The translations under genes were made by a program, and so were the position numbers. The notes beneath the pieces were generated by a model. It did no database searches. It was not told where the DNA came from and saw only the letters and a program-made list of their open reading frames with translations. Source: a virus (Duplodnaviria; Caudoviricetes). Taken from it: 58,104 bases of DNA. The stretch is taken from positions 1-58,104 of the IMG/VR virus record IMGVR_UViG_3300045993_000204; one strand, 5' to 3'. The first letter of the stretch is position 1. Each line of letters starts with the position of its first letter. Positions 3,396-46,326 of the stretch are shown one piece after another.

Positions 3396-3934
3396 ACATT
3401 AGCCCGTGCAGCAGGGTAGTAAAAAATCTCCCACGGTCGGTAGTCTGTTTTATAGTCCGTATGCTTTGATACGCCGTACTTATCCCCAGCGCAGCATTCC
3501 CGGCACGTCACGCAGCGCCCGTTGCCCCGATTGAGGTCAGTGCTGTACGCAGTCAGGGGCTTGTCAACGCCGCACTTTGCGCAAGCTTGTGACGGGGTGG
3601 GCTTCCTGGCCTCGCACACCTTGCATGTGTTGTGGAATACATATTCGGGCTTGGCAAGCCTCTCGGGATTCCTGATCCTCCGGTACCCCTCTCGCAACGG
3701 TTTCTTTATTCCGCAGCAGACGCAGGGTTTGCCGTAATCTCCATTAAGGCGCATCTCGCTCTCAACAGGTTGTCCGGCTTTGATAACGGCGTCGCACGTC
3801 TTGCAAACGCTCCGGTACAGCATATCTTCGCCAGTTCGTCTTACTCGTGCAAAGCCTTTAGCTTTGGGCTTGCGTACTCCGCACACGGTGCACACTTGCC
3901 CGAGCATGTGGTAGCGGGTCATCTCGCTTGTCAT
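3392..3934 (-). CDS. Triple zinc-ribbon protein
   Basis: Three CxxCGxxKP...CxxC units; ATG 3934 coupled to the upstream stop. Confidence 0.65.
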   Translation of the reverse strand: MTSEMTRYHMLGQVCTVCGVRKPKAKGFARVRRTGEDMLYRSVCKTCDAVIKAGQPVESEMRLNGDYGKPCVCCGIKKPLREGYRRIRNPERLAKPEYVFHNTCKVCEARKPTPSQACAKCGVDKPLTAYSTDLNRGNGRCVTCRECCAGDKYGVSKHTDYKTDYRPWEIFYYPAARANV

Positions 3935-6734: not shown

Positions 6735-6958
6735 TTCAAATACTTCCTTATGTAGTTACCAACTCCGTAGGTGGCGCCATAGGTATTGCGTGTGTATTCA
6801 TCTGCTTCTGTCGCAGCTTCTCGAAGCGCAGCCTTGCGGCACGCTTCGCCGTACTTGCGCATCTGGTCGGCGGTGTAGGTGGTGCTTGTTACATGCGTAT
6901 CCGCGTCAAGCCAATCTGATACCGAATACTGGGAGGAAGGCAGTGGTGGCAGGTTCAT
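6731..6958 (-). CDS. Hypothetical protein
   Basis: LPPLP...YTADQMRKYGEAC, a common small phage protein pattern. Confidence 0.6.
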   Translation of the reverse strand: MNLPPLPSSQYSVSDWLDADTHVTSTTYTADQMRKYGEACRKAALREAATEADEYTRNTYGATYGVGNYIRKYLK

Positions 6959-7584
6959 AGCACCCCTTCGAAGCACTCGTGAACAAGCGCGTCAAACTCT
7001 GCGTTTGCAGCGGACTCTGCGGCGTACCATGCGGCGGACTTTTCGGCGTACTTTGCGGCGTACTCTGCGGCGTACCATGCGGCGGACCATGCGGCGGACC
7101 ATGCGGCGGACTCTGCGGCGGACCATGCAGCGGACTCTGCGTTTGCAGCGGACTCTGCGGCGTACCATGCGGCGGACTCTGCGGCGGACCATGCAGCGGA
7201 CTCTGCGGCGGACCTAATAGACTCGTCCCCAGTCATCAGCCAGTCCAGCACAATGTCAGGCAGCTCCCCGTATTCAGTAGTTTTCAGCGCCTGCATCCGT
7301 GCATGAAAACGTAGCATGACTGTCGCGTCCATCCTAGCTATGATGGTGCGCTCAGTGCAGACGATCTTGTCATCGCCTTTGATGATCTTGCCACCGCATT
7401 CAACGAGACACAGTATTGGGCCGGGTGCATGCTTAAGCGCTTGATGTGGCTTCAGGCTTGCATGTAGCCCTTGTTCGCACAGGAGCGGTTCTCCAGTGAA
7501 GATCAAAGGTACTCCGTCATCAGGCGCAGTTTTTCCGTCGCGCATTTTGTTGTTCTCGTAGAGAAAATGCCATGCTCTTGTCAT
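6955..7584 (-). CDS. Protein with a CxxGLHAS N-terminal domain and AA(W/E)(S/Y) tetrapeptide repeats
   Basis: LCEQGLHAS...K.VC..R; 12-bp repeat array encoding AAWSAAES. Confidence 0.7.
   Translation of the reverse strand: MTRAWHFLYENNKMRDGKTAPDDGVPLIFTGEPLLCEQGLHASLKPHQALKHAPGPILCLVECGGKIIKGDDKIVCTERTIIARMDATVMLRFHARMQALKTTEYGELPDIVLDWLMTGDESIRSAAESAAWSAAESAAWYAAESAANAESAAWSAAESAAWSAAWSAAWYAAEYAAKYAEKSAAWYAAESAANAEFDALVHECFEGVL
6995..7213. repeat. Coding tandem array of 12-bp units (gcggcggactct / gcggcggaccat / gcggcgtaccat)
   Basis: Directly visible; about 18 units including a few 9-bp variants. Confidence 0.9.
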
Positions 7585-7739
7585 GTCAAGTACCCCCAAG
7601 CGAAGCACAGCGCAACAAACGCGCAGAACATGCCAACTACTGCGAGGCCGTTCAGGATGCGGCCAAACAGCGCGTCGATCTCGCTCCAAGGAGCATTCCA
7701 GTCGTCATCGGGGATTTTGTAAGATTTCCAGTCAGTCAT
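7581..7739 (-). CDS. Small membrane protein
   Basis: aaagga RBS; C-terminal hydrophobic helix; an alternative start exists at 7826. Confidence 0.55.
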   Translation of the reverse strand: MTDWKSYKIPDDDWNAPWSEIDALFGRILNGLAVVGMFCAFVALCFAWGYLT

Positions 7740-8269: not shown

Positions 8270-8689
8270 TTATGCTTGCTGCCACACACGACCTGTAGAC
8301 TCCCAAAGAGCTTTTGCAGGAGCTTCATATTCAGTATTTTGGTAAATAATGAACTGGCAGCTAGTGTTTAGCAGAGTTTTTGTGCACCTAAGGCAGGGGG
8401 CATGTGTGGTGTAGCATGCATAAATCTGCTCAGGATCTCGGCATGTTAACAGTGCGTTCTGCTCTGCGTGGATTCCAATACACGTGTCAGATCCTTTGGG
8501 CAATGCAGCCCCTGCGCACGCTACGTCTATGCAGTGCTGAAGGCCTCTAGGCACGCCATTAAAGCCAGTGCCTGTAATCCTGTAGCGCACGTCAACTAAA
8601 ACGCAGCCTACTTGTAGTTTCCTGCACGTGCCAAGCGAGGCTAGCACTTTAGCAATTTGGAGCATTACGGTATCTTTACATGGGCGCAT
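8270..8689 (-). CDS. dCMP deaminase (cytidine/deoxycytidylate deaminase family)
   Basis: HAEQNAL and PCLRC zinc motifs, VGCVLV, TGFNG. Confidence 0.9.
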   Translation of the reverse strand: MRPCKDTVMLQIAKVLASLGTCRKLQVGCVLVDVRYRITGTGFNGVPRGLQHCIDVACAGAALPKGSDTCIGIHAEQNALLTCRDPEQIYACYTTHAPCLRCTKTLLNTSCQFIIYQNTEYEAPAKALWESTGRVWQQA

Positions 8690-9134
8690 AGCTTGCCCGC
8701 CTGTACAGCTTAAACGCCTTAATATTACAATTTGCGCAAAGTAATCTAAACTCTTTTGGGAATGCCATAGTGATAAGCCACTCATAAAACTGGCTGCCGC
8801 CTGTAAAACCTACTTCCCGCCGATGCGCAGCGCCATTTTGGGCAGTATGGTCAACAGTAAGCACATCTGGGTCTGCTTCGCCACAAAGTACGCAGCTGCC
8901 GCCATACACAGCAAGTACCTGGGACTTTCGCTGCAGGTTTTTAGCCCGGCTTTTTTGGTTAACTAATTCTCTATTTTCAGTACGCCACGTTTTGTAGCGT
9001 GTGCTTGCTGAACCTGTAAAACAAGCCCAGCAAAGCACCCCATAAAATCCAGAAGCTTTTCTGCGGCGAAGCTCTGGCGAAGCATCATAGTGTCTTGCGC
9101 ATTTGCATTGTGCGCATACCCGTGTTGCAGGCAT
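8676..9134 (-). CDS. HNH endonuclease with an N-terminal KASGF zinc finger
   Basis: YGGSCVLCGE...LTVDH...LLCANCN. Confidence 0.8.
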   Translation of the reverse strand: MPATRVCAQCKCARHYDASPELRRRKASGFYGVLCWACFTGSASTRYKTWRTENRELVNQKSRAKNLQRKSQVLAVYGGSCVLCGEADPDVLTVDHTAQNGAAHRREVGFTGGSQFYEWLITMAFPKEFRLLCANCNIKAFKLYRRASYAPM

Positions 9135-9135
9135 G

Positions 9136-9537
9136 CTACGCTCCAAGCTTCCGCTCTATTGCCCGTGCAATCTCTGCCTCAGGTCCGACCCAGCCTACAG
9201 GCTTGCAAGCATCAACTTTATTACCACGCTTTGTTTGCCCAGAAACCTTGCGCATATTGGCTGCTTGCACAGCATTCCAGATTTCATTGAAGGGGAGACC
9301 CATGCGGTACGCAGTGCCTAGCGCTACGTACACAAGATCGGCAAGGGCGTCTGCTACCCCCACAAGATCGCCTACATTGCTAGCACTGCAAAACTCATCG
9401 AGCTCTTCATGCAAGAAGCGCGCGCGTTCAATGCAGTACTCAGGCGATACCAGGTTAGGGGCTGCTTCTGCAAAGTCGGTTAAGATCTTCTCATGGAAGT
9501 CAGCCACGTCTTGCAGCATATTAGGTGTTGAAGGCAT
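9136..9537 (-). CDS. MazG-like all-alpha NTP pyrophosphatase
   Basis: EELDEF...ADALADLVYVALG...VQAANM.K...KP.GW..P. Confidence 0.85.
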   Translation of the reverse strand: MPSTPNMLQDVADFHEKILTDFAEAAPNLVSPEYCIERARFLHEELDEFCSASNVGDLVGVADALADLVYVALGTAYRMGLPFNEIWNAVQAANMRKVSGQTKRGNKVDACKPVGWVGPEAEIARAIERKLGA

Positions 9538-10345
9538 AGTTAAGTACTCCAAAGTGTTGGTAATTGTTTAGCTTTAAGTCGCTTGGCATAAAGTTGTCTA
9601 TTGTGCACGCCCGCAAGCTATACGTCGGCAGCTTGTGCATAAGCCTTACGCGATGCTCTTCAAATGTGTCTATGTGGTTTTGGTAAACATGTGAATCGCC
9701 CATCATAAAGATAAGCTTGCCAGGGGTGTAGCCTGCCTCAGAACAAAGGATTAGCATCAGTACTGCGTAAAGAATAATGTCACTTGGCAACCCGAGACAA
9801 AGGTCTACGGACCGCATAGTAACAATACAGTCCAAGTGCTTATCATTACGCACATTGAACTGGGCAAGCAAGTGACAAGGTGGCAGGCACATTTCGTCAA
9901 GCTCTGCAGGATTGTAGGTAGCCAGCAAATGTCTACGGCTACTTGGATTAGTCCGGAGTCCTTGAACTAGATCAGCCATCTGGTCCAAGCAACTTTCCCA
10001 AGTGCGCCACTGTGCACCATAGACTCGCCCAACGTACTGCTTTTCAACTGGCACGTCTTTATTAGGGGCCCAGGCCGCAGCGTTGGCGTCCCAGTAGTTA
10101 CAGCCAAAATCTTTGAATGTTTTAAGGTCTGTTGCTCCCCGCAAGAACGCAGCTTCTTCCCCAAGGATGCCACCTGTAAAGATCTTCCGCTGGGTGAGAA
10201 TGGGAAAGCGCCCTTTTTCTAGGCAGTCAATTACTAGCATTGTGCCAAAGAGACTGACTGTAGGCCCTGCGCGGCTGGCACGCACTTCCCCAGTAGCGAG
10301 TACTCTGGACACAAGTGCTACGTAGTCTTTCTCAAACTTGCTCAT
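9521..10345 (-). CDS. thyA: Thymidylate synthase-family enzyme with Asp at the Asn177-equivalent position (possible dCMP methylase)
   Basis: GRVYGAQWR, SSRR, LPPCH, RSVDLCLGLPSD, GDSHVY motifs. Confidence 0.9.
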   Translation of the reverse strand: MSKFEKDYVALVSRVLATGEVRASRAGPTVSLFGTMLVIDCLEKGRFPILTQRKIFTGGILGEEAAFLRGATDLKTFKDFGCNYWDANAAAWAPNKDVPVEKQYVGRVYGAQWRTWESCLDQMADLVQGLRTNPSSRRHLLATYNPAELDEMCLPPCHLLAQFNVRNDKHLDCIVTMRSVDLCLGLPSDIILYAVLMLILCSEAGYTPGKLIFMMGDSHVYQNHIDTFEEHRVRLMHKLPTYSLRACTIDNFMPSDLKLNNYQHFGVLNYAFNT

Positions 10346-10632
10346 AGGTCCCCGCGCTGCTGGTCAAGATAGTCCAGGTAGAACACAGCGTAGTTCACAA
10401 GATCATACACGCTGTCCAGCATGCTATCAAAATTTGGGGTCGAACCTTTGTCGAGCAAAGACCGCATACGCAGCACTTTCATGTGAAGCATTTGCTGGTA
10501 ACTAATATCTCTGAATGGGAAATACTCGTGAAGCCCGATCGTGTTGTTATAGTCTTGCCCTTTGCGGTCTATAAGCTTGATTGCAGGCTCAATTAGACTT
10601 AGAAACTTTTGTCTATCCATTTGATTCTCCAT
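10342..10632 (-). CDS. Nucleotide-modification-associated (Nmad1/DUF1599-like) all-alpha protein
   Basis: KGQDYN...KVLR...DSVYDLVNY pattern; ATGA-coupled to the thyA-like gene. Confidence 0.6.
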   Translation of the reverse strand: MENQMDRQKFLSLIEPAIKLIDRKGQDYNNTIGLHEYFPFRDISYQQMLHMKVLRMRSLLDKGSTPNFDSMLDSVYDLVNYAVFYLDYLDQQRGDL

Positions 10633-10681: not shown

Positions 10682-11125
10682 TTAGGCAGCGACTTCTTCT
10701 TCTTCTGCGATTTCTTCTGTGGCTTCCGCCGTAGCCACGACAGTCTTCAGTTTTGCCCGGTAGTAGGCCACGCAGTTCCGTGTGGTTTTGGCTGTAGGGA
10801 AAGCTACAGCGACAAGCTCCAGGATTTCGTCGTTGGTCTTGCCTTCAGTAATCAGGCCCTTGCAGAAAGCGCCGATGCCTTGAGTCGGGCCACGCTTACC
10901 AGCTGTATTGTACTTGGGACCTGAGTTAGCACCATCGTCAGCAGGAATAATTTCGCGGTTAGGATCAAGCTCTTCTTCAGCTTGCTCGTCTGTAGGTGCT
11001 TGCAGTTGTGCAAGAGCAGCTTGCGCGGCTTTCAAGTTTTTGAACGAGTCAACAGGATCTTTGCCTTGCTCAATTGCAAGTGCGTTGTAGGTTTCGATGA
11101 TTTCTGACATTGTTTGTTTGGCCAT
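10682..11125 (-). CDS. Acidic protein with a C-terminal HTH-like domain, paralog of 24064-24522
   Basis: GIGAFCKGLITEGKTNDEIL...KTTRNCVAYY matches GVGARILELIAEG.LSNKEIV...KTTYACVAWY. Confidence 0.7.
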   Translation of the reverse strand: MAKQTMSEIIETYNALAIEQGKDPVDSFKNLKAAQAALAQLQAPTDEQAEEELDPNREIIPADDGANSGPKYNTAGKRGPTQGIGAFCKGLITEGKTNDEILELVAVAFPTAKTTRNCVAYYRAKLKTVVATAEATEEIAEEEEVAA

Positions 11126-11209: not shown

Positions 11210-12775
11210 CTATTGTGTGGCAAATAATTTGAGCGCAGCAAATACACTTTCTTGGGTTGCGGTCTTATCACTTAGGACCTTAACTAGGACTTCGTCAATA
11301 GTTCCTTGGGCTACAAGTAAGTAGTTCCTAACAACAGATTTCTGGCCTTGCCTATAGATGCGCGCAACTAGCTGCATGTAGTTTTCTAGGTTGTAGGTAA
11401 GGCTAAACCAGCACATTGCACTACCCCCATCCTGGAGGTTAATGCCATGCGCGCCTGCTTGGGGTTGAATAAGCAAGATAGGCGCAGCACCTGCATTCCA
11501 GGCAGCTACCACACTTTGAGTTTCTTTAGTGCTCATGCCCCCACGAATTGCTAGTGCATCTGGGAATACGCCTAGCAAGCGCTCACACTCGTGGTTGTAC
11601 TCATACGCAACAATTAAGGGCTCACCGTTCAGCTCTTCTACCAACTCTTGCAATGCCATAATCTTGTCATTATGTAGCACTTCCCAGCTACGGTCTTCTA
11701 CGTACAAAGCACCACCTGCAAACTGCCTAAGCTTGCTAGTAAGCACGCCAGCATTAGCTGCTGTAATTGTGGTATCCTTAAGCTTGAGAATGTACTCATC
11801 TTGTAGAAGCTTGTACCTAGAAAGGTCTTTGAGCTTGACAGGACGCACAACATCAAATAACCCTGGTAGTACAAGGTGGTCTTTTGGATCCATGTACATA
11901 GCAAGGTCTTTGAGCGTGTCTGTCAACGCAGTAGACTTCTCAGGCGTGATGTAGTATTTGTATTGGTCCCAAGGTTCTTGAAAAAAGTACTTAGCACGGA
12001 AATGCGTAATGTACCTCCCCAAGCGCATACCGCAGTCTAACACAAAAACTTGCCCAAACAAGTCTATAAGCCCATTAGCAGTAGGGCTAGCAGTTAAGCC
12101 CCACTTGAACTTGAAGGTCGGGAGCAGCGGTTTCAAGACTTTGAACCGCTTAGACGATGCATGCTTTAGCTTGGTTAGCTCATCAGCAACAAGTACATCA
12201 AACTTATGGCCTTTGGCAAGAATAGGCGTAGCCCAAGCAAGCCCGTCGTAGTTCATAACTACAATATCGTAGCTAGGATCTTTGAGTACCTGCTGCTTAT
12301 CTGGTCCATGCGCAAGACCCACTTTCAAGCCTTGAAACTGGGCCCACTTTTTTGGCTCCGAGATCCACGTCGTCACACAGACGGTGAGTGGCGCTAAAAT
12401 AAGGATGCGCTTGGCAAGCCCTTCTTGCTGCAACTTCAAAATTGCTGCAAGCGTGATGCTTGTTTTCCCCATACCAGGTGCTAAGAAGAGCGCCCCACTT
12501 ATACGGTGCGTAAGCCATTCTATCCCCCGCTCTTGGTATCCATGCGGCTTCCATGTAGGGCTAGCAAACCCGTCAAGAACTGCTTGAACTGCTCTTTGCT
12601 TGTCACCATCACACTGGTGAAGTTCATCTTCTGCAGCTCCGATTGCGTGTACTCCTGTAGGGGCCGAAGAGATTCCCCCGACCGCTTCAGCTCCACAAAT
12701 GCTACTGTCCCATACGGGGTCAATAGCATTCTGTCTGGGAATCCCCGTACTGCTCTGATCTTGACTAGTTTGCAT
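11210..12775 (-). CDS. SNF2-family helicase (start uncertain)
   Basis: WKPHGYQ, GMGKT, DELT, LTASP, HGINLQ, ARIYRQGQ motifs. Confidence 0.9.
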   Translation of the reverse strand: MQTSQDQSSTGIPRQNAIDPVWDSSICGAEAVGGISSAPTGVHAIGAAEDELHQCDGDKQRAVQAVLDGFASPTWKPHGYQERGIEWLTHRISGALFLAPGMGKTSITLAAILKLQQEGLAKRILILAPLTVCVTTWISEPKKWAQFQGLKVGLAHGPDKQQVLKDPSYDIVVMNYDGLAWATPILAKGHKFDVLVADELTKLKHASSKRFKVLKPLLPTFKFKWGLTASPTANGLIDLFGQVFVLDCGMRLGRYITHFRAKYFFQEPWDQYKYYITPEKSTALTDTLKDLAMYMDPKDHLVLPGLFDVVRPVKLKDLSRYKLLQDEYILKLKDTTITAANAGVLTSKLRQFAGGALYVEDRSWEVLHNDKIMALQELVEELNGEPLIVAYEYNHECERLLGVFPDALAIRGGMSTKETQSVVAAWNAGAAPILLIQPQAGAHGINLQDGGSAMCWFSLTYNLENYMQLVARIYRQGQKSVVRNYLLVAQGTIDEVLVKVLSDKTATQESVFAALKLFATQ

Positions 12776-12841: not shown

Positions 12842-13495
12842 CTAGTACTTGCACTTTCCGCCTTTAGTTTTGGAATACGGGCACCACCGACAGCTTTGAC
12901 CTGGTGTTGGATTCCAAAGTTCCTCAGCAAAGATTGGCGCAAAATACTGCTCGTATACTTTACGCAGGGCTAGAAGTTCCTCACGAGTGTACGTCTTACT
13001 ATACGTTTGGTCTTGGTCTATAAACCACATTTCAACTGTGGTACTTACAGCTTCAGGATAAACTGCACCGCCACATACTGCATACATTTCAACCTGCTCA
13101 GTACTTGGTACCTTATACTTGCCAGTTTTCCAATCAATAACAGTAAGCTTCCCGTCTTTGAGGTAATGCCCATCAGACTTAGCACGTAGCCAGCAGTCTT
13201 TGCCAAACCAATCTGGTAGCTTTGCCCAGTTTTTATCAAAGCCCCATGCTTGCTCAGCCTTGAAGTCTTCAAGCTTAAGCGCATCAAAAGCTTCTTTCCA
13301 GTTAACAGCTTCTGGCGGTGGTTCAGCTTGCCACCCATTCATGTACGCTTCAATACCTTCATGAATTCGGCTACCCCGTTCCATCGCGCTGGATCCAGGT
13401 TGTGGAATTTTGTCTATAAACTGGTAGGCAAATTTAGCAGGGCACTCACGGTAGCAATCAAGCTTGCTAAAACCTACTGCGTCATTGAATTTCAT
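12842..13495 (-). CDS. PD-(D/E)XK (Cas4/RecB-like) exonuclease
   Basis: S.LDCYRECP, RGSRIH, D...IDWKTGK, Q..MY, C..CPY...C. Confidence 0.85.
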   Translation of the reverse strand: MKFNDAVGFSKLDCYRECPAKFAYQFIDKIPQPGSSAMERGSRIHEGIEAYMNGWQAEPPPEAVNWKEAFDALKLEDFKAEQAWGFDKNWAKLPDWFGKDCWLRAKSDGHYLKDGKLTVIDWKTGKYKVPSTEQVEMYAVCGGAVYPEAVSTTVEMWFIDQDQTYSKTYTREELLALRKVYEQYFAPIFAEELWNPTPGQSCRWCPYSKTKGGKCKY

Positions 13496-13889
13496 ACTGT
13501 GCTCCTTTACGTGAATTTTCAGATCGTGTTAAAAACTGTAAGTTATTTTCAACGTGTAAACCGCTAACAAGTTTGCCTTGCAGCGGAGTTATATGATCTA
13601 CGGTTAACCCAAGCGTACTTGCTTGGGTATAAATAGCCTTGATTTTAGCCACATCGGCCCATAGTGGTACACGTTGAACTTTAAGCAAGTCTCTGCGCAC
13701 AGATTTTGCTACAGCCTTGCCCGGGTTGTTCTTGTACCAAGCTAGCGAAAGCTTATTGACCTTTTCACGTTCGCCGGGGATAGCTAGACGCTTAGCCCGG
13801 CTGCGCTGTCCTATGAACCTACTCATCAGCCGACTCTCTTCTTGGTGCTGCTCAAATGGCGTTAACTTGTCAAACGCTACTAAGATCAT
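13482..13889 (-). CDS. HNH homing endonuclease
   Basis: VDHITPLQGKLVSGLHVENNLQFLTRSENSRK. Confidence 0.85.
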   Translation of the reverse strand: MILVAFDKLTPFEQHQEESRLMSRFIGQRSRAKRLAIPGEREKVNKLSLAWYKNNPGKAVAKSVRRDLLKVQRVPLWADVAKIKAIYTQASTLGLTVDHITPLQGKLVSGLHVENNLQFLTRSENSRKGAQYEIQ

Positions 13890-15660
13890 AGCCAGTACTC
13901 CCTGTAGAAATAACCTTGAATAAAAGCGTGCTTTGAAAGCTGCTATTCATTGCCTGCTCAAGCATACATTGCTCAGTTTCAAGATGCACTTTATCAACTT
14001 GAATAACTAACTCGTCATGAATTGTAAGCACTAGCTCACCGTAACTTGTTTTTAGGCAGTACGCAAGCATGGCTTCTTTTGTCATATCTGCTGCAGAACC
14101 CTGTATGAGATAGTTGGTAAGCTTGTACTCGAAGCTCTTCCAAACCCCTTTCACAACTGCTGGTTTTTGTGCGTAGTAGTTTCGACCGCCAAGCGTCGTA
14201 ATAAAACTGCGGTTCTTACCTGCATCTTGCACACGTTTTGTGAGTTCCCTAATCTCAGGTAGCGCTTTAAGGTACTGCTCCTTAACTCGCGTAGCCTCAA
14301 CTACTGTCATGTGAAGACTCTCAGCTATCTTCCCAACGCCGGCCCCATATAGTACCGCAAAGCCAAGTGTCTTGGCTTCTTTCCGTGTGATTCCTGCGAT
14401 TTTGGCTGCGATCTGATGTATATCAGCTACAGGATCTACCTCGAGTTCTTTGAGCAGTTTGCCGGGGGCGAAGTGCGTAAGCAGTCGAAGCTCTTGTGCA
14501 GAGTAGTCTCGATCGATAAAGACTTTGCCCTCATCAGGGATGATGTACTTACGTACCTGTGGTAAAGGAAACGGAAGCGCGTACCCAATTTTATCAAGTT
14601 GCGCGCGCAACCCTTCCCATAAAACGGGGATGTTCTGAAGGTTAGGCGAGCAACTGATCCGGCCCGTCCTAGCACCTGTATCAGAATAATTCCGCACGAG
14701 ATTCCATTTCACGAACAAACGGCCATGCTTCTTGTATTGCTCTAGCCAGTTCGTCATGAACGTCCGAAGACACGTAGCCACGCTCCCACGCACCAACAAA
14801 TGGCCAAGCAAAGTAGGATTATTGATAGCATTTATAAGACTTTCTTTGGCTGTGCTGCGTTGACCTGTTGGGGTAGTGGCAAACCCTTTCGACATGCCCG
14901 CTGCCTCAATAGCATCTGCAAGCTGCGCGTTACTGTCTACGTCGACCTCAGTGCCAAGGATCTCACAGATAGCTGTGTCAAGATCGTCAAGGCATTGGAA
15001 GTAGTAGTCTGTGTCTTTCTTGAGTGCTTCCCCATCAAGGTTTAGACCTCGCTGCTCCATCTTAAGGACATGGGGCATCAAAGCAATCTCACGTTTGTAA
15101 GCACCCTCCATGCCCGTAGCTACTACGTACTCATGCAATAACTTGAACAGCTGCAAGGTACGCACTACGTCGCCTATAGCATAAGGCCCCACGAGTGTGC
15201 CTGGAGCTTTGCAGATGAAGGCGCCCCAACCTTTAACATCGCGGCAAACACTATGCGTGATAAGCCAGTCTTTGACAGCATCGCGCTCGTCAGGGGGCAT
15301 TTGTAACCACTGTGCCGCGAGAGGCTTCAGGGCCAGCTCCCCGAAAGGATCTTGGAGGAAGGCAAGGATCATGGTGTCATGTATGCGATCCCATGGAACT
15401 GATATGCCCCATTGCTCCGCTATAATGGCGCAATCGAAGGGCGCATTATGTGCTATAAACTCATAATCGAAGTCATCAAACAGCTCTTGGAGCTTTCGCT
15501 TGGCCGTAGCCTCTGTGCAGTTGTTGCCGATAGTGTGCCCAAAGGCGTAATACGTAGGTTCTTGACCATCAATATAGATTGCAAGTCCCACGGGTTTGGG
15601 GGGATACTTTGGTCGATCCTCGATACCCTCGGACTCGAAGTCAAATGCTGCATACTTCAT
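13870..15660 (-). CDS. polA: Family A DNA polymerase with a 3'-5' exonuclease domain
   Basis: FDFE, HNAPFD, YAIGD exonuclease motifs; DYSAQELR, KTLGFAVLYG and HDE polymerase motifs. Confidence 0.93.
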   Translation of the reverse strand: MKYAAFDFESEGIEDRPKYPPKPVGLAIYIDGQEPTYYAFGHTIGNNCTEATAKRKLQELFDDFDYEFIAHNAPFDCAIIAEQWGISVPWDRIHDTMILAFLQDPFGELALKPLAAQWLQMPPDERDAVKDWLITHSVCRDVKGWGAFICKAPGTLVGPYAIGDVVRTLQLFKLLHEYVVATGMEGAYKREIALMPHVLKMEQRGLNLDGEALKKDTDYYFQCLDDLDTAICEILGTEVDVDSNAQLADAIEAAGMSKGFATTPTGQRSTAKESLINAINNPTLLGHLLVRGSVATCLRTFMTNWLEQYKKHGRLFVKWNLVRNYSDTGARTGRISCSPNLQNIPVLWEGLRAQLDKIGYALPFPLPQVRKYIIPDEGKVFIDRDYSAQELRLLTHFAPGKLLKELEVDPVADIHQIAAKIAGITRKEAKTLGFAVLYGAGVGKIAESLHMTVVEATRVKEQYLKALPEIRELTKRVQDAGKNRSFITTLGGRNYYAQKPAVVKGVWKSFEYKLTNYLIQGSAADMTKEAMLAYCLKTSYGELVLTIHDELVIQVDKVHLETEQCMLEQAMNSSFQSTLLFKVISTGSTGYDLSSV

Positions 15661-15673
15661 ACATGCTTTCAAG

Positions 15674-15752: not shown

Positions 15753-16258
15753 TCACGCAGGTACCCAAGTATTAGACTTGGCCGAATTTGCTTGCGCAGT
15801 AATAACTTGCAAATTATTATGCACGTGTAGCCCCGATACAAATTTTCCGCGTAACGGAATTATATGGTCCACTACAACATTTTCGCCTAAGCTGCGCCGG
15901 TAAGCCGCTTCCGCATACACCGCATTAATTTGCTGTGTATTCCTCCATGAAGGTGCTCTTTGAAGTTCAGCGCACCAACGTTCCATTGCGTAAGCTACTG
16001 TTTTTCCAGGATGCGCCAAATGCCATGCTTTTGTAAGTTCACGTTGGCGCGTGGGGTTTGCAGTTCGCCAAGCAGTACCATGCAATTTAATACGTTCTGG
16101 ATTTGCTTGGCGATACTGAGCTATCCGAGCTTTGTGCAGCTCAGTATTTTCTGCGTAGTGCTTTGCTTTAGCTGCCAATGCGCGCTCTTTGTTAGCCGCG
16201 TACCATTTTTTGCAGTCGCTAGCCTTCGCAAACGGTCTTCTTCAAGCGTTTTAGTCAT
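15753..16258 (-). pseudogene. HNH endonuclease that needs a -1 frameshift at an A6 run (16206-16211)
   Basis: ATG 16258 reads MTKTLEEDRLRRLATAK; the -1 frame continues KWYAANKE...VDHIIPLRGKFVSGLHV. Confidence 0.65.
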
Positions 16259-16975: not shown

Positions 16976-17362
16976 TTAACTCCGTTTTGACTTAGTTAGT
17001 GAAATGTCGGTATCGACAGCTGCCTCGGTTCCCGGCACGAGGATGCCATCTTTGTACAAGTCGCGCCAAGCTACAACGCCAATGCGTTTTTGTAGCAAGT
17101 CGAACCTGTCATTAGCTTTTATATATGCGTAGACTTTGTCCCAATCTTCTAAATAGGGGACATCATCAGTAGTAATTGATGCCGTTGCAGTCATCCCAGA
17201 TGCTTTAGCAAGACCGGTCTCATTGAGCAACTTGAGCACTGCGCCCTTAGCTACTACTTCTGCGGCTTTGAGGATCTTGACTTCTGCATCCTTGGCAAGA
17301 CGCGCAGCACGAGCTTCGTATAGGGCATCAATCGCTTGCCCGAGCGTCGTTGTTTCAGACAT
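16976..17362 (-). CDS. Conserved replication-module protein
   Basis: DWDKVYAYI...FDLLQKR...VPG pattern. Confidence 0.6.
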   Translation of the reverse strand: MSETTTLGQAIDALYEARAARLAKDAEVKILKAAEVVAKGAVLKLLNETGLAKASGMTATASITTDDVPYLEDWDKVYAYIKANDRFDLLQKRIGVVAWRDLYKDGILVPGTEAAVDTDISLTKSKRS

Positions 17363-17582: not shown

Positions 17583-18038
17583 TTAAAATGCCCAAGGTGG
17601 CACACTATTTGCCCCACTTGTGGCAACTTTACTCCAGCGGTACCAAGTAGGTTTCATGGCAATTTTCTCAGCAATGCGACTACGAATGATTGCCAAGGCT
17701 TCAGGCGTAGGGGTGTAATCCTGGTTTAGAATATCCAAGGCATGCCACACGCGGTCGGGGTCAAGCGGCGAATGGATGTCGAAGTCAATGTCTCGTTTGA
17801 GTAGCTCCCGCTGTAGCTGGTTGTAACGCTTGCGAAGGTAGAAACCTTTGTCATAGAAGAACATGACATGACCCGTATTGAGCGTGAAGGCAGGCGGTAT
17901 AGCTTTGAGCACGCCTGCGAGACCTCGCGCTTTGAGGCTACGGCTTAGTGCTTTGGGGACCATCTTGATTTCGCGAAACTCAGCAAACAAATGCTGGTCG
18001 GCAAGCTCAGATGGTGGGACGAGGTTAATACGTGTCAT
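17583..18038 (-). CDS. denV: Pyrimidine-dimer DNA glycosylase (T4 endonuclease V-like)
   Basis: MTRINLV...LADQHLFAEFRE, FTLNTGHVMFFYDK, KPTWYR. Confidence 0.9.
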   Translation of the reverse strand: MTRINLVPPSELADQHLFAEFREIKMVPKALSRSLKARGLAGVLKAIPPAFTLNTGHVMFFYDKGFYLRKRYNQLQRELLKRDIDFDIHSPLDPDRVWHALDILNQDYTPTPEALAIIRSRIAEKIAMKPTWYRWSKVATSGANSVPPWAF

Positions 18039-18069
18039 AGGTTCTTTCAGTAGTGCAACTTGTATTATA

Positions 18070-18237
18070 CTACAAACTTGCATGTACAGGTAAACAAATG
18101 CGCGCTTCTTTGCCATTTGCCGAAAGGACTACGAACTGGCGCTCGAGGGTCATAGTTGCCAAGTCTTTCTCACCCTAACTGAGCTTTAAGAACATAAGTG
18201 CGTTCTTGAACTCTAGGTAGAACTCGTCTGCGTCCAT
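18070..18237 (-). pseudogene. Small gene with an internal TAG at codon 21
   Basis: MDADEFYLEFKNALMFLKLS*GEKDL...; TAATG-coupled with ggagg upstream. Confidence 0.45.
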
Positions 18238-19802: not shown

Positions 19803-21806
19803 CTATGTCGGTGCTTTTGAAATGGCAATGTATCCAGGGAGCGCAGAGTCGTGGTTCCCGATCCCACCTGATAGTGCTTTGTGCTGCCACTCGTCTATGC
19901 TTAGCTGTGCAAGCCGCTTCCTAGCAGGGGTAAGGTTAAACGGGAATGTCGGCGATGTCGCAAGGCTTCTCAACACCTTCGCCACCAAGTTCACAGCAGT
20001 AACCTCTTTGTTGTCTTGGTTAATTCTATCTGTGATAAACTTGGCAGTGATGAACTGGTGTGGTAAGTCTTTCAGTTTGGGGAAGATATTGCCTGCAATC
20101 ATTTGCTCAATGCTGCTTGTGAGCTCATCATGCTTGGCGTACTTGAGGTTGAGCAGTTCTTGTGGGGAGCTGATGTGAGGATTCTCTGCTCTGAGCTCTT
20201 GGTCTACATCGTCCATAGTCAGCCTGGACTTCCACCACACTTGCGGGTCATTCTCGTCTACTACCACAGTTTCAAGCGCTTCTGCAAGGAGCTGCAACTT
20301 GACTTCGTAGGGTATTACTACGCACCAGTTCACTGTAACGGCAATGAACCGGCGGGAGCCAGACTTGTCTGAGGTGATGTCCGATCTGTTAGTCGCCCCA
20401 CAGATGATGTACCCTCTAGGCTCTACTTTAGGGTCAGTCTGGTACAGTACCTGGATTGTGTCCTCTGTTTGGGAGATGTACTGCTTGATATTTTCGTGAG
20501 ATGCACCTCGTGAGTCCAAGATAATACCTTCTGCCATATCCACAATGACAGACTTTGCGCACTTCACCATGCTATGCCGCTGCTGGCTAGACGTTCCTGT
20601 AGGGAGCGCCTCGATTGCGTGGTAGAGCTTGTGCCCTTCGAACGTTGCCAAGGCTTCTAGGAACGTGGTCTTACGAATGCCTTGTGGGCCTACTAGCATG
20701 AAGGCAAAGTCTGCTTTAGTTCCTGGTTTGACAAGACGCAGGGCAAAGGCAGTCATGAGCATGCGCCCAAAGTCTTCGCAGATGTGCTGGTCTTCTGGTG
20801 CTACTTGTAAGTACTTTGGGCCCCAAGTATCAAGGCGAGGTACTTTGTCCCAGGTCACTGCCTTGATTGCATCCCGTACTAGGTCTGTAGACGTGGTGTT
20901 GAGGTACCCACCTACTGCAGTGGCAATCACTGGTTTTGTGAACTTGCCATCTATGTGTTCTTGTAGGTTAACCAGGATGTCAAACTTCACATTGTCTACG
21001 CTAGTACAAAGACTGCCATCAAAGATAATGCCAAGTCGCTTATCCTCGTAGAGGCGCTTGGCATACAGTGTTTTGATTATTTGGTAGGCATTAAACTCGT
21101 TGCGCTCAAACTTGCCTTTGTCATCCACAATCACCTTGGCTTCAGACAGGACTTGCTTACGGGAAGCCTGGAGTGACTCTACTGGGATGACCATCAGTTC
21201 TTCAAGCTGGCCTTCAGGATCCTCAACTAACCAGTCATCCACACCTTTGTTGAACGGTGGCTTATAGACTGTGAGGGTAACACTTAGCGCTTTGAGGAGG
21301 GAAGCGAAGGTAGTGACTGCGTACTGGATTTGTACATTTGTTTCTATGTCCCCATCAAAGACTGCCTTGACCTCTGTGCAACCATGCAGGAGACCAACTA
21401 AGGTGGGGTGCAGTACCTGACCCTGCGAGAACCCGCGACAGCCTCTTAGCCCTACGGACGCAATGTTGAAATGCTTGGAGAACTTGACTGACTTCTTCTC
21501 CCCTTCTATTAGCCATAGTGTCTTGGACTTGGGGTACTCGCCTAGCGGGACGTACACCTCTGTTTGTCCCTTGGGTCCCTTATATTTAGGGACCGAATCC
21601 GCACGACAAACCCACATTTGTGGGACTTGATATGGTATAATATAACGCCCAACACCAAATAGATTTGCTATGGGATAGGCACCAAGGTCTGATGGTTCTA
21701 GCCCAGAACGTGCAAGATCCGAGCGCATAAACTGCTCGGAGATGCTGTCTGATATATATGCAGGAGCTGGTTCATAAAGTAGCGAAGCTTGCGCATGAGC
21801 TGACAT
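19803..21806 (-). CDS. Primase-helicase (Toprim/DUF3854-like domain plus VirE/VapE-type ATPase)
   Basis: IEGEKK, VFDGD, KGVDDW; PGTKAD, GPQGIRKTT, GATN, GSRRF. Confidence 0.85.
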   Translation of the reverse strand: MSAHAQASLLYEPAPAYISDSISEQFMRSDLARSGLEPSDLGAYPIANLFGVGRYIIPYQVPQMWVCRADSVPKYKGPKGQTEVYVPLGEYPKSKTLWLIEGEKKSVKFSKHFNIASVGLRGCRGFSQGQVLHPTLVGLLHGCTEVKAVFDGDIETNVQIQYAVTTFASLLKALSVTLTVYKPPFNKGVDDWLVEDPEGQLEELMVIPVESLQASRKQVLSEAKVIVDDKGKFERNEFNAYQIIKTLYAKRLYEDKRLGIIFDGSLCTSVDNVKFDILVNLQEHIDGKFTKPVIATAVGGYLNTTSTDLVRDAIKAVTWDKVPRLDTWGPKYLQVAPEDQHICEDFGRMLMTAFALRLVKPGTKADFAFMLVGPQGIRKTTFLEALATFEGHKLYHAIEALPTGTSSQQRHSMVKCAKSVIVDMAEGIILDSRGASHENIKQYISQTEDTIQVLYQTDPKVEPRGYIICGATNRSDITSDKSGSRRFIAVTVNWCVVIPYEVKLQLLAEALETVVVDENDPQVWWKSRLTMDDVDQELRAENPHISSPQELLNLKYAKHDELTSSIEQMIAGNIFPKLKDLPHQFITAKFITDRINQDNKEVTAVNLVAKVLRSLATSPTFPFNLTPARKRLAQLSIDEWQHKALSGGIGNHDSALPGYIAISKAPT

Positions 21807-21941: not shown

Positions 21942-22511
21942 CTACGTCTCCAAAAGTCTATTGCCTTTACTACTATTTTCTGTTTGAGTAAGCAGCTGTA
22001 AGTTGTTTGCAACATGAAGCCCAGATACTAAAGCTCCGCGCAAAGGATAAATGTGATCTACAGTAAGCCCCTTACTTGCAGCTTTTGTGTATACTTGCTT
22101 AATTGCTGCCAAGTCTGCCCATGGTGGCACACGCTGGATTTTAGCTATAGCGTACCTCGTACAATTAGCATTAGACTTTCCGCGATTCGCTTTTTGCCAA
22201 GCCCTTACTGCCGCGTTAAGCTTTTCACGCCCTTCAGGCGTTGCTCGGGTTTTTGCCTTTGCAGCTCGTTGCACAGCCCGTATTTTGTCTAAGCCTTCTG
22301 GAGTGGTTCTATTTTTTGCTTGGGTCGCTCTATTTGCCGCATTTGCTTTTGCGCGACCTTCTGGAGTTGCTTTACGAGCAGCATTGCGCTTGGCATCACT
22401 AAGCAAGTAACAGTCCCAGCAGACTGCCCCTAAAAAACCAGACGCTTTCGAGCAAGACTTAGCTGTAAGCTCATAGAACTTTTCTTGGTTACAAATTTTA
22501 CAATATCGCAT
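21942..22511 (-). CDS. HNH homing endonuclease with an N-terminal KASGF zinc finger
   Basis: CKIC...KASGFLGAVCWDC; TPEGR repeats; VDHIYPLRGALVSGLHV. Confidence 0.88.
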   Translation of the reverse strand: MRYCKICNQEKFYELTAKSCSKASGFLGAVCWDCYLLSDAKRNAARKATPEGRAKANAANRATQAKNRTTPEGLDKIRAVQRAAKAKTRATPEGREKLNAAVRAWQKANRGKSNANCTRYAIAKIQRVPPWADLAAIKQVYTKAASKGLTVDHIYPLRGALVSGLHVANNLQLLTQTENSSKGNRLLET

Positions 22512-24063: not shown

Positions 24064-24522
24064 TTACTCTTGGGTTACTTCTTCAACTTTGGGCAGGTCG
24101 ATTTTATTTGCCCGCACTTGAGACTTGTACCATGCAACACACGCATAGGTTGTCTTGCGAGCGGGATTCTCTTCAAGGACCTTTGCAACGATTTCTTTGT
24201 TAGAGAGCGCGCCTTCGGCAATCAATTCAAGGATCCTTGCACCAACGCCAGTCTTCACAGTCTTGGGCGCTTTAAACGCATTATTTTCGATCGGTGTATG
24301 TTCGGCTTCGTCGTTCGTTTTGGGAGCCTCCGTGACGATCGTAGTCGATGTATCGTCGCTTACGATCGTTAACGTTTCGGCATCGACGACGACCGGTGGC
24401 ACGTACTCTTCGCCTTTTTCCGCAGCGATCTGAGATTCAATGGCTTGAGTTTCGAGCTCGATCATGGCAAGCTTTTGAGCCTTAGTTAAACGTGGGGCCT
24501 TGGGTGCAGTAGTCTTAGTCAT
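24064..24522 (-). CDS. First early gene, with a C-terminal HTH-like domain; paralog of 10682-11125
   Basis: Has its own promoter and terminator; shared C-terminal motif. Confidence 0.75.
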   Translation of the reverse strand: MTKTTAPKAPRLTKAQKLAMIELETQAIESQIAAEKGEEYVPPVVVDAETLTIVSDDTSTTIVTEAPKTNDEAEHTPIENNAFKAPKTVKTGVGARILELIAEGALSNKEIVAKVLEENPARKTTYACVAWYKSQVRANKIDLPKVEEVTQE

Positions 24523-45234: not shown

Positions 45235-46326
45235 ATGTCATCCAAATACCCCGGTGGATTTATCACAAAGAGCCCTGTTGCGCCTACCACTTCTGCTGCC
45301 AGCGGTGTGTGGACTTTGGATCAGGCCATGCAGTACACCAAAGCAGGCACGTGGCCGACACCGGTTGTATACATTCAGGATATATTTGCAGCAACAACCT
45401 ATACAGGTAATGGCTCCACGCAGACTATTACCAATAGTATTGATCTGGTAAGTAATGCCGGGCTGGTTTGGGTGAAGAACAGAACAACTGCTGACGGACA
45501 CGCTTTGTATGACACCACAAGAGGGGTAAACAATAAGTTGGCGACAGACGCTACTACAGCGCAAACTGCTTCTGGTGGCATCACGGCATTTTCATCAACA
45601 GGGTTCAGTTTGGATTCTTTAGCCAATGTAAACAGAAACGCAAACTCCCTTGTAGCTTGGACCTTCCGCAAAGCCCCCAAGTTTTTCGATGTGGTGACTT
45701 ATACGGGGAATGGCGCAACCGGTAGAACCATCAGTCATTCACTAGGCATCACTCCAGGTTTTATTATCATAAAACGCACAGATTCCACCAGCGATTGGGC
45801 AGTATGCCATTGTCACGATGGTACAGTCGGGCATTACGGATTTTCGCTAAACACTGCAAATTCCTCTCGTGCTTCAGGCCCCGTATACCACACATCAACA
45901 CTGATAAATCTTGACACGGTAACGACGTACACTAATTTCAATGTAGCGATGAATGTTAATGGTGCTACTTACGTTGCTTATGTGTTTGCAAGTAATACAG
46001 CAGCCAACGGACTTATTCAATGCGGCACGTTACTCAGCGATGCAAATGGGCGCGCTAATGTAACCCTAGGGTGGCAACCCCAATTTGTGTTGTATAAAAA
46101 TATAGACTTTAACGGTCCTTGGCTTATGGATGATACAGCTAGGGGGTGGACATCGACAGGATGGTCTGACTTGGTACCAAATACTTCTAATGCAGAAGTT
46201 GTTAATGCTCTCCCTTACTGGTTTCCGACAGCAACGGGTATGTCTTCTGGCGTATCATTTGGTCCTTTTATGGTGTCTAGTACCTACATTTACGTTGCCA
46301 TCCGTAACTATCCGTACCCTGTATGA
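45235..46326 (+). CDS. Putative receptor-binding/tail protein
   Basis: YTGNG repeats, LVWVKNR, FFDVVTYTGNG; shares its N-terminus with 43941. Confidence 0.65.
   Translation: MSSKYPGGFITKSPVAPTTSAASGVWTLDQAMQYTKAGTWPTPVVYIQDIFAATTYTGNGSTQTITNSIDLVSNAGLVWVKNRTTADGHALYDTTRGVNNKLATDATTAQTASGGITAFSSTGFSLDSLANVNRNANSLVAWTFRKAPKFFDVVTYTGNGATGRTISHSLGITPGFIIIKRTDSTSDWAVCHCHDGTVGHYGFSLNTANSSRASGPVYHTSTLINLDTVTTYTNFNVAMNVNGATYVAYVFASNTAANGLIQCGTLLSDANGRANVTLGWQPQFVLYKNIDFNGPWLMDDTARGWTSTGWSDLVPNTSNAEVVNALPYWFPTATGMSSGVSFGPFMVSSTYIYVAIRNYPYPV

Follow-up and report, generated by a model that had tools for sequence, protein, structure and literature searches.

The replacement of cytosine by 5-methylcytosine (5mC) as a protection against restriction is an established phage strategy, as is the supply of thymidine nucleotides from deaminated 5-methyl-deoxycytidine (5m-dC) nucleotides. 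Among the closest described systems is that of phage Xp12, in which every cytosine is 5mC. Its DNA was reported to contain 5mC by liquid chromatography-mass spectrometry (PMC7653180). In our study we analyzed the complete IMG/VR virus record IMGVR_UViG_3300045993_000204, the 58,104-bp genome of an uncultivated phage (hereafter the window, meaning the whole stretch). We focused on a gene block at positions 8270-10632, in which a homolog of the thymidylate synthase ThyA has aspartate at the position of Escherichia coli N177. Homologs of this kind are referred to as ThyA(D). The block comprises five genes, all on the minus strand and with overlapping ends. In the order of transcription these encode a DUF1599 protein (10632-10342), the ThyA homolog (10345-9521), a PRA-PH/MazG-like protein (9552-9136), an HNH protein (9146-8676) and a deaminase (8683-8270). 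With a probability of about 70% we consider this cluster to be an Xp12-type module for DNA with 5mC replacing cytosine, which would work by the pathway set out below. The strategy is already in print, and the window looks like a further example of it rather than a new strategy. What it adds is a large uncultivated viral clade in which the predicted methylase is almost a natural N177D variant of ThyA and for which a profile-based annotation would say thymidylate synthase.

Yang et al. reported in a bioRxiv preprint that on contigs with modified cytosine 104 of 149 deaminase genes have a ThyA homolog at a distance of at most 3 kb, and that PRA-PH and DNA_pol_A are among the top neighbours of these genes (10.1101/2024.12.05.627091). 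In the window the deaminase gene is 1.3 kb away from the ThyA(D) gene. Five of the seven Asp177 ThyA homologs tested in the preprint made 5m-dC, and so did the Xp12 enzyme (10.1101/2024.12.05.627091). For Xp12-type phages the authors proposed that cytosine is replaced by 5mC and that deoxythymidine triphosphate (dTTP) is made from 5-methyl-deoxycytidine triphosphate (5m-dCTP); labelling work on Xp12 from 1982 is cited there as well. IMG/VR contigs were mined in the same work by the criterion of a deaminase together with a ThyA(D), and a figure presents the cluster of the deaminase mSCD-B5 beside those of Xp12 and PaMx74. As described in the main texts, the MetaGPA clusters of this preprint and of an earlier article (eLife 2021, PMC8670742) resemble our window in the domain set, the neighbourhood and the logic of position 177. 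A difference concerns position 147, which differs between modified and unmodified contigs (PMC8670742), whereas the clade of the window keeps His147.

The Xp12 record (MT664984) contains a ThyA homolog (QNN97214), a dCMP deaminase (QNN97213), a dihydrofolate reductase (DHFR, QNN97212) and, directly upstream of the ThyA homolog, a 257-aa protein annotated as 'hydrolase (HAD superfamily)' (QNN97215). Direct comparison with the window identified the latter as a fusion: its residues 21-136 match the MazG-like protein (41% identity, E 4e-21) and its residues 175-251 match the DUF1599 protein (48% identity, E 6e-22). The gene order of Xp12 is accordingly [MazG+DUF1599 fusion]-ThyA(D)-deaminase-DHFR. 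A family that spans both domains also exists among the PHROGs (phrog_18404), while a dedicated search for longer fused DUF1599 forms returned none, which is weak evidence. Both phages thus carry a MazG/PRA-PH domain, a DUF1599-like domain, a ThyA homolog with Asp177 and a deaminase of the dCMP family in one block. They are also alike in size (58 kb for the window and 64 kb for Xp12), in their PolA-type replication module and in the lack of a match to two kinase models. In contrast, MazG and DUF1599 are fused in Xp12 but encoded by two genes flanking the ThyA gene in the window, DHFR is present in Xp12 but without a match in the window, and an HNH gene is inserted in the window. A further contribution of this locus is that DUF1599 is a member of the module, fused to the pyrophosphatase in Xp12; the term DUF1599 does not occur in the main texts of 10.1101/2024.12.05.627091 and PMC8670742.

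Predicted substrate and product of the ThyA homolog

Asn177 of thymidylate synthases selects deoxyuridine monophosphate (dUMP), and the mutation N177D switches ThyA to deoxycytidine monophosphate (dCMP), as described in mutant studies cited in PMC8670742. The product depends on further residues. A hydrophobic Leu143 excludes water and leads to a methyl group, whereas Asp or Glu at this position marks hydroxymethylases, and gp42 of phage T4 is without the C-terminal tail of ThyA (PMC6400193, PMC13326640). Moreover, Asn replacing Asp169 was described as the mark of 5-hydroxy-dCMP synthases (PMC13326640).

The gene at 9521-10345 (minus strand) encodes a protein of 274 aa. The initial annotation, made from the sequence of the window, had noted that it keeps the length and the motifs of ThyA, and this was confirmed: the translation contains VYGAQWR, SSRRH, LPPCH, RSVDLCLGLPSD and GDSHVY, and it matches PF00303 (Thymidylat_synt) over the full length of the profile (positions 1-259 of 266, E 2.6e-68, 230.5 bits at a cut-off of 24.3). 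The annotation had also placed an Asp at the position of N177. In the HMMER alignment to solved thymidylate synthases 'lglpsdiily' pairs with 'lgvpfniasy'. In a MAFFT alignment with E. coli ThyA, T4 gp42 and the homologs of Xp12 and PW916, the Asp corresponds to E. coli N177, to T4 D179 and to the Asp of Xp12, and a Ser takes the place of F176. In E. coli numbering the protein has E58, Y94, L143, C146, H147, R166, D169, S176, D177, H207 and Y209, and the tail after Y209 is 54 residues long, compared with 56 in E. coli and 29 in T4 gp42.

With its Asp at the position of N177, the enzyme is expected to act on dCMP. A Leu in the sequence L-P-P-C occupies position 143, three residues before the catalytic Cys, where hydroxymethylases have Asp or Glu. 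The short C-terminus of the T4 gp42 type is absent, and D169 is kept where 5-hydroxy-dCMP synthases of the RB69 gp48 and DLP3 gp80 type have Asn. Asp177, a non-acidic residue 143 and Asp169 are the residues expected of a dCMP 5-methyltransferase. From the combination of D177, L143, D169 and a tail of E. coli length the expected product is therefore 5-methyl-dCMP (5m-dCMP), and we predict the enzyme to be a 5m-dCMP synthase. The initial annotation had proposed that the enzyme methylates or hydroxymethylates dCMP. The substrate part of this claim stands with Asp177, but of the two reactions methylation is favoured by L143, D169 and the complete tail.

A dCMP hydroxymethylase or 5-hydroxy-dCMP synthase, leading to DNA with 5-hydroxymethylcytosine, 5-hydroxycytosine or a derivative, would have Asp177 in common with T4 gp42 and the RB69-type enzymes. 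The closest homologs of the deaminase also include those of Xp15 (which has a carbamoyltransferase as well), PW916 and MW202621, and the ThyA homologs of these three phages carry the hydroxymethylase signature (D143, T147). However, Leu143, D169 and the complete tail of the window enzyme argue against such a product. Likewise, the early-region proteins scanned, a subset of all open frames of the genome, include no tailoring enzyme such as a glycosyltransferase or carbamoyltransferase. We regard this as the least probable of the explanations considered here.

The T4 system of gp42, the dCTPase/dUTPase gp56 and the deaminase Cd follows the same general scheme, in which deoxycytidine triphosphate (dCTP) is destroyed, dCMP is modified by a ThyA homolog with Asp and modified DNA is built. 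T4 gp42 differs from the window enzyme by Asp143, Thr147 and the absence of the tail. Its product carries a hydroxymethyl group, and T4 encodes a deoxynucleoside monophosphate (dNMP) kinase of its own and, besides gp42, a true thymidylate synthase. A strong likeness exists to the engineered variants N177D of E. coli and N229D of Lactobacillus casei, in which the specificity position is changed to Asp and L143, H147, D169 and the full tail are as in canonical ThyA. In the search with the ThyA homolog the L. casei structures 1njc and 1njd, which we take to be N229D entries, scored slightly above the wild-type structure 1lca (3.3e-40 versus 1.6e-39). Unlike the engineered mutants, the window enzyme is a natural form; it is fixed throughout a large viral clade and has F176S/A as a second change.

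The clade was investigated with the best 120 metagenome homologs, which are 51-100% identical to the ThyA homolog. In all 120 the Asp177 ends the motif R-S-x-D-x-x-x-G-L-P-x-D. The alignment of 118 rows consisted of the window and 117 homologs of 240-320 aa; length excluded three of the 120, a 239-aa form of the protein from the window itself and two insert-bearing proteins of approximately 460 aa. Asp177, in place of the canonical Asn, was found in 118 of 118 rows, as were L143, H147 and D169. The catalytic C146 and the residues for nucleotide and folate (E58, Y94, R126/R127, R166, S167, D169, H207 and Y209) are all present in the ThyA homolog and in 117-118 rows of the alignment. Position 176 showed 111 Ser, 5 Ala, 1 Asn and 1 Thr. 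The fixation of Asp177 in every row argues for selection on this residue. Among the best 150 representatives at 50% clustering, 68 had Asp and 82 Asn at position 177; in all of them residue 143 was Leu or Ile and residue 169 was Asp. In the trees, from which one short row was left out, the window fell inside an all-Asp clade of 18 (support 0.87 in FastTree and 84 in the approximate likelihood-ratio test (aLRT) of IQ-TREE). This clade was nested in a group of 46 Asp and 1 Asn (aLRT 87). It was placed apart from Xp12 and among proteins closer to canonical ThyA; the predicted methylase lineage of the window is less removed from canonical ThyA than that of Xp12.

The phage collection contained 4029 matching records, all less than 60% identical to the ThyA homolog, with 34.9-40.1% among the 40 matches listed. 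The database names of the metagenome homologs say thymidylate synthase wherever a name exists, and automatic annotation would probably give this name to the entire ThyA(D) clade. A bolder reading starts from the 118 aligned members of the clade and their identity of at most about 40% to phage-collection records among the matches listed. According to it, the L143/H147/S176/D177 clade would be a second dCMP methylase lineage, descended directly from canonical ThyA and independent in origin of that of Xp12. DUF1599 would serve as an obligatory subunit without catalytic function, linking the dCTP pyrophosphatase with the methylase in a minimal channelling complex for 5m-dC nucleotides, and Ser/Ala176 would be a second, undescribed specificity determinant beside Asp177. 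We consider this combination doubtful.

Two members of the clade, P0045 (467 aa) and P0069 (458 aa), are lengthened in frame by about 190 residues immediately after the motif Y-G-x-x-W-R-N-W. The extra sequence could represent an endonuclease domain that was inserted, or else a mobile element that is read through.

Conservation and composition of the gene block

The initial annotation had described a pyrimidine-rewiring cluster in which the ThyA homolog is coupled to a DUF1599-like gene, a MazG-like pyrophosphatase and a dCMP deaminase. All three neighbours were recovered by profile search (PF07659, PF01503 and PF00383), and they form a conserved block with ThyA(D); the HNH gene at 8676-9146 had been missed. 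In related viral contigs the order PolA, PD-(D/E)XK nuclease, SNF2 helicase, a 147-aa protein, DUF1599, ThyA(D), MazG and deaminase is kept. The order DUF1599-ThyA(D)-MazG-deaminase was found in five of the six contigs of our first scan, one of these five being cut after the ThyA gene. In the sixth contig (L007) a DUF6378 gene (PF19905, E 4.3e-07; approximately 3630-3905, plus strand) is found upstream of ThyA(D) where the others have DUF1599, and the two families may be functional equivalents. A second scan of IMG/VR, seeded with DUF1599, yielded 24 loci. A ThyA gene lies directly downstream of DUF1599 in 22 of them, each time with Asp177. It is followed by MazG in 20 loci and then by the deaminase in 19, the remainder being cut by locus ends. 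One distant DUF1599 locus was without ThyA. A single IMG/VR contig, represented by L025 and L043, appears to carry ThyA(D) twice, at a distance of about 4 kb and with no more than a DUF1599 fragment ahead of the second copy, which could reflect a duplication or an assembly artefact.

The MazG-like protein (9136-9552) belongs to the all-alpha nucleoside triphosphate (NTP) pyrophosphohydrolases of the MazG/PRA-PH type (PF01503, E 3.9e-16) and matches phrog_671, 'nucleotide pyrophosphohydrolase' (E 7.8e-23). Its residues E49, E50, E53, D68 and D72, which are presumably metal ligands, are invariant in eight of eight aligned relatives. From the gene context we predict dCTP and also deoxyuridine triphosphate (dUTP) as its substrates.

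The DUF1599 protein of 96 aa matches PF07659, 'nucleotide modification associated domain 1', with 28.1 bits at a cut-off of 25, and the stop of its gene overlaps the start of the ThyA homolog. The name Nmad1 is said to originate from Iyer et al. 2013. A sequence search of the PDB with this protein gave no match up to E 10, and a protein atlas search returned DUF1599 clusters only. Profile comparison of DUF1599 with MazG gave a probability of 0.3% and an alignment over just the seven residues D-x-x-x-D-L-V, which indicates no kinship. The predicted complex of both proteins scored 0.00, a 'no answer' that carries no weight either way. Because both domains form one polypeptide in Xp12, we take DUF1599 to be a partner of the pyrophosphatase, and the protein is probably an accessory part of this enzyme.

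The deaminase is a zinc deaminase of the dCMP deaminase family (PF00383, E 6.2e-14; phrog_174 'dCMP deaminase', E 1.2e-26). Its open frame extends to 8785, but the matches of its relatives begin at residues 4-7 of the 137-aa form starting with ATG at 8683, which is therefore the most likely start (8270-8683). The zinc and catalytic motifs HAEQNAL and PCLRC align to the solved dCMP deaminases of S. mutans and cyanophage S-TIM5. We inspected the four nearest homologs in the phage database (MedDCM-S28-C10, Xp15, MW202621 and PW916), and each is encoded just downstream of a ThyA homolog with Asp177. The enzyme is predicted to deaminate 5-methyl-dC nucleotides and thereby to supply thymidine nucleotides. 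Deaminases of this group are distant from that of Xp12 and offer candidates to screen for 5mC selectivity, with methylome sequencing as the application.

Between the pyrophosphatase and deaminase genes lies the HNH endonuclease gene (8676-9146; phrog_2255, E 1.4e-10). It is missing at this place in five of the six contigs of the first scan, those reaching past MazG, where the deaminase gene directly follows MazG. Furthermore, a tblastn search gave no hit in the 24 DUF1599 loci. The gene likely encodes a homing endonuclease and would be a selfish insertion outside the pathway.

Upstream of DUF1599 a conserved 147-aa protein is encoded (10682-11125, minus strand), which matches only PHROGs of unknown function. 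It occupies the same position in all six contigs of the first scan and in 22 of the 24 DUF1599 loci, has a paralog of about 150 aa with matches to the same PHROGs at 24064-24522 (minus strand) and has relatives in Xp12. The P-loop-like sequence GLITEGKT of this protein was considered as a sign of a kinase and rejected, as it lies near the C-terminus and the family is without a kinase match.

Proposed pathway and alternative readings

We infer all steps of the pathway from sequence. First, the MazG/PRA-PH enzyme would cut dCTP, and probably dUTP, to the monophosphate, which would keep cytosine out of the DNA and feed the second step. The ThyA homolog would then bind dCMP via Asp177, take a one-carbon unit from methylene-tetrahydrofolate and, with hydride reduction, release 5m-dCMP and dihydrofolate. 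Host kinases would convert 5m-dCMP to 5m-dCTP, while dihydrofolate would be recycled by the host FolA, and the phage PolA would insert 5m-dCTP into the DNA. Finally, the deaminase would draw on the 5m-dC nucleotide pool and turn a portion of it into thymidine nucleotides, most likely 5m-dCTP into dTTP by analogy with mSCD-B5, and a dUMP-dependent thymidylate synthase would therefore not be needed. In keeping with this scheme, the genome contains a single PF00303 gene and no match to ThyX, DHFR or a C5 DNA methylase. DUF1599 would act in this scheme as the accessory partner of the pyrophosphatase, with the HNH gene standing outside it.

mSCD-B5, the only deaminase characterized in detail in the preprint, deaminated 99% of 5m-dCTP but 4% of dCTP within 30 min, and according to the main text it had no detectable activity on dCMP or 5m-dCMP (10.1101/2024.12.05.627091). 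This bears on the initial annotation, which had the deaminase convert 5m-dCMP to deoxythymidine monophosphate (dTMP). Deamination of the 5m-dC pool is retained in our scheme, but since mSCD-B5 showed no detectable activity on 5m-dCMP the step may have been put at the wrong phosphorylation level. The annotation had also offered modified DNA and a route to dTMP as alternatives. This is probably a false choice, because the preprint proposes both at once (10.1101/2024.12.05.627091), and the two routes are most likely two branches of one pathway.

In an alternative reading, 5m-dCMP would be a mere intermediate which is deaminated to dTMP, and the virion DNA would have ordinary cytosine. The cluster would then serve a dUMP-free thymidylate supply and not anti-restriction. 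In agreement with this, the genome contains no second thymidylate synthase and no match to ThyX. There is also no recognizable dNMP kinase: neither the Thymidylate_kin and AAA_18 models nor the MedDCM phage kinase gave a match in the genome, and none of its open frames contains an N-terminal P-loop. The initial annotation had seen the missing kinase as an argument for the dTMP route. The absence itself was confirmed, but the argument fails since Xp12, despite its 5mC DNA, gave no match to the two kinase models either, which makes the absence uninformative on 5mC in the DNA. Phosphorylation of 5m-dCMP by host kinases is the simplest assumption. Moreover, a dedicated NTP pyrophosphatase in the block fits the exclusion of dCTP better than a supply of dTMP, the characterized deaminase was described as without detectable activity on 5m-dCMP, and such clusters are enriched on modified-cytosine contigs (10.1101/2024.12.05.627091). 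We therefore consider a pathway that serves dTMP supply only to be distinctly unlikely.

Weak matches to the P-loop start of thymidylate kinase (E about 0.002, below the cut-off) were seen in PW916 at 45344-45406 (L018) and in MW202621 at 17149-17193 (L019). No gene is annotated at either site, which in both phages is flanked by the NTP pyrophosphatase and the hydroxymethylase-type ThyA, and the matches may belong to unannotated kinase genes.

Several points weigh against an Xp12-type module. The ThyA homolog reaches 180.2 bits in the NCBIfam thymidylate synthase equivalog TIGR03284 (cut-off 108.35), so that by this profile it is still an ordinary ThyA. It is only 26% identical to the proven Xp12 methylase (E 7e-19) and has L143, H147 and S176 where Xp12 has N143, P147 and Y176; because of this distance we transfer the function by residue rules and gene context and not by orthology. 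The deaminases of the two phages share 24% identity (E 1e-6). The solved sequences closest to the MazG-like protein are 3nl9, an uncharacterized putative NTP pyrophosphohydrolase, and the MazG-like DR2231, which bears on the substrate assigned to the pyrophosphatase. In addition, the phage is known from assembled contigs and their sequence alone. Two of the seven ThyA homologs tested by Yang et al. gave no 5m-dC. The preprint further describes the 5mC preference of deaminases as polyphyletic, with 34 of 194 soluble candidates clearly 5mC-selective on single-stranded DNA, and its main text gives no published sequence rule for this selectivity (10.1101/2024.12.05.627091).

Some of these points would suit an ordinary thymidylate module, in which the ThyA homolog converts dUMP to dTMP despite its Asp and the deaminase converts dCMP to dUMP, as in the Cd and Td pair of T4. 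The enzyme is 35-40% identical to canonical thymidylate synthases, passes the TIGR03284 cut-off and keeps H147, L143 and the C-terminal tail, and a dCMP deaminase together with ThyA is a common phage pair. However, Asn177 is the main determinant for dUMP, and the N177D change gives a dCMP methylase (PMC8670742). The fixation of Asp in the whole alignment and its presence in all 22 ThyA genes adjoining DUF1599 also argue against an ordinary module, which we judge to be very unlikely. We therefore retain the Xp12-type module as the preferred reading.

Phage genome and early region

The genome has an exact terminal repeat of 127 bp. The DNA sources in which this phage was found as contigs are two wetland metagenomes, and no RNA source was among those listed. 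By its polymerase the nearest named phages are Pseudoxanthomonas phage PW916 and Stenotrophomonas phage AXL3 (approximately 37% identity), and a search of the phage collection at the DNA level with the window gave no match. When 185,579 species genomes were scanned by pattern for the ThyA(D) clade, no relative was found, and the scan therefore provided no host clue. No tRNA genes were found in the window.

The early region, encoded on the minus strand, includes an SNF2 helicase (11210-12775), a PD-(D/E)XK nuclease (12842-13495), the PolA-type DNA polymerase (13870-15672), a DenV-like glycosylase (17583-18116) and a VapE-like primase/helicase (19803-21806). It also holds four HNH or endonuclease-VII-like genes, namely the one within the block and those at 13482-13889, 15753-16178 and 21942-22511. 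The gene at 13482-13889 was assigned to HNH by eye and not by profile scan. Like the HNH gene of the block it is missing at its place in related contigs, and because of this absence both look like recent homing-endonuclease insertions; the gene at 13482-13889 had one tblastn hit elsewhere, in L028.

A scan for promoters and terminators detected a minus-strand promoter site at 11200-11172 upstream of the block and no terminator-like sites. The number of promoter sites (5) was not above that in shuffled sequences (3.5 +/- 1.8). The dinucleotide bias of the genome (CpG 0.79, TpG 1.19, CpA 1.24) was considered as a footprint of 5mC deamination and rejected, because a full replacement of cytosine would not act on CpG alone. 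A tandem repeat of 12/24 nt is located at 7006-7214, with about 17 copies of the 12-nt unit and 76-81% matches. It sits in a minus-strand open frame (6955-7689) whose protein matches DUF7666, and its translation is a SAAESAAW-like repeat.

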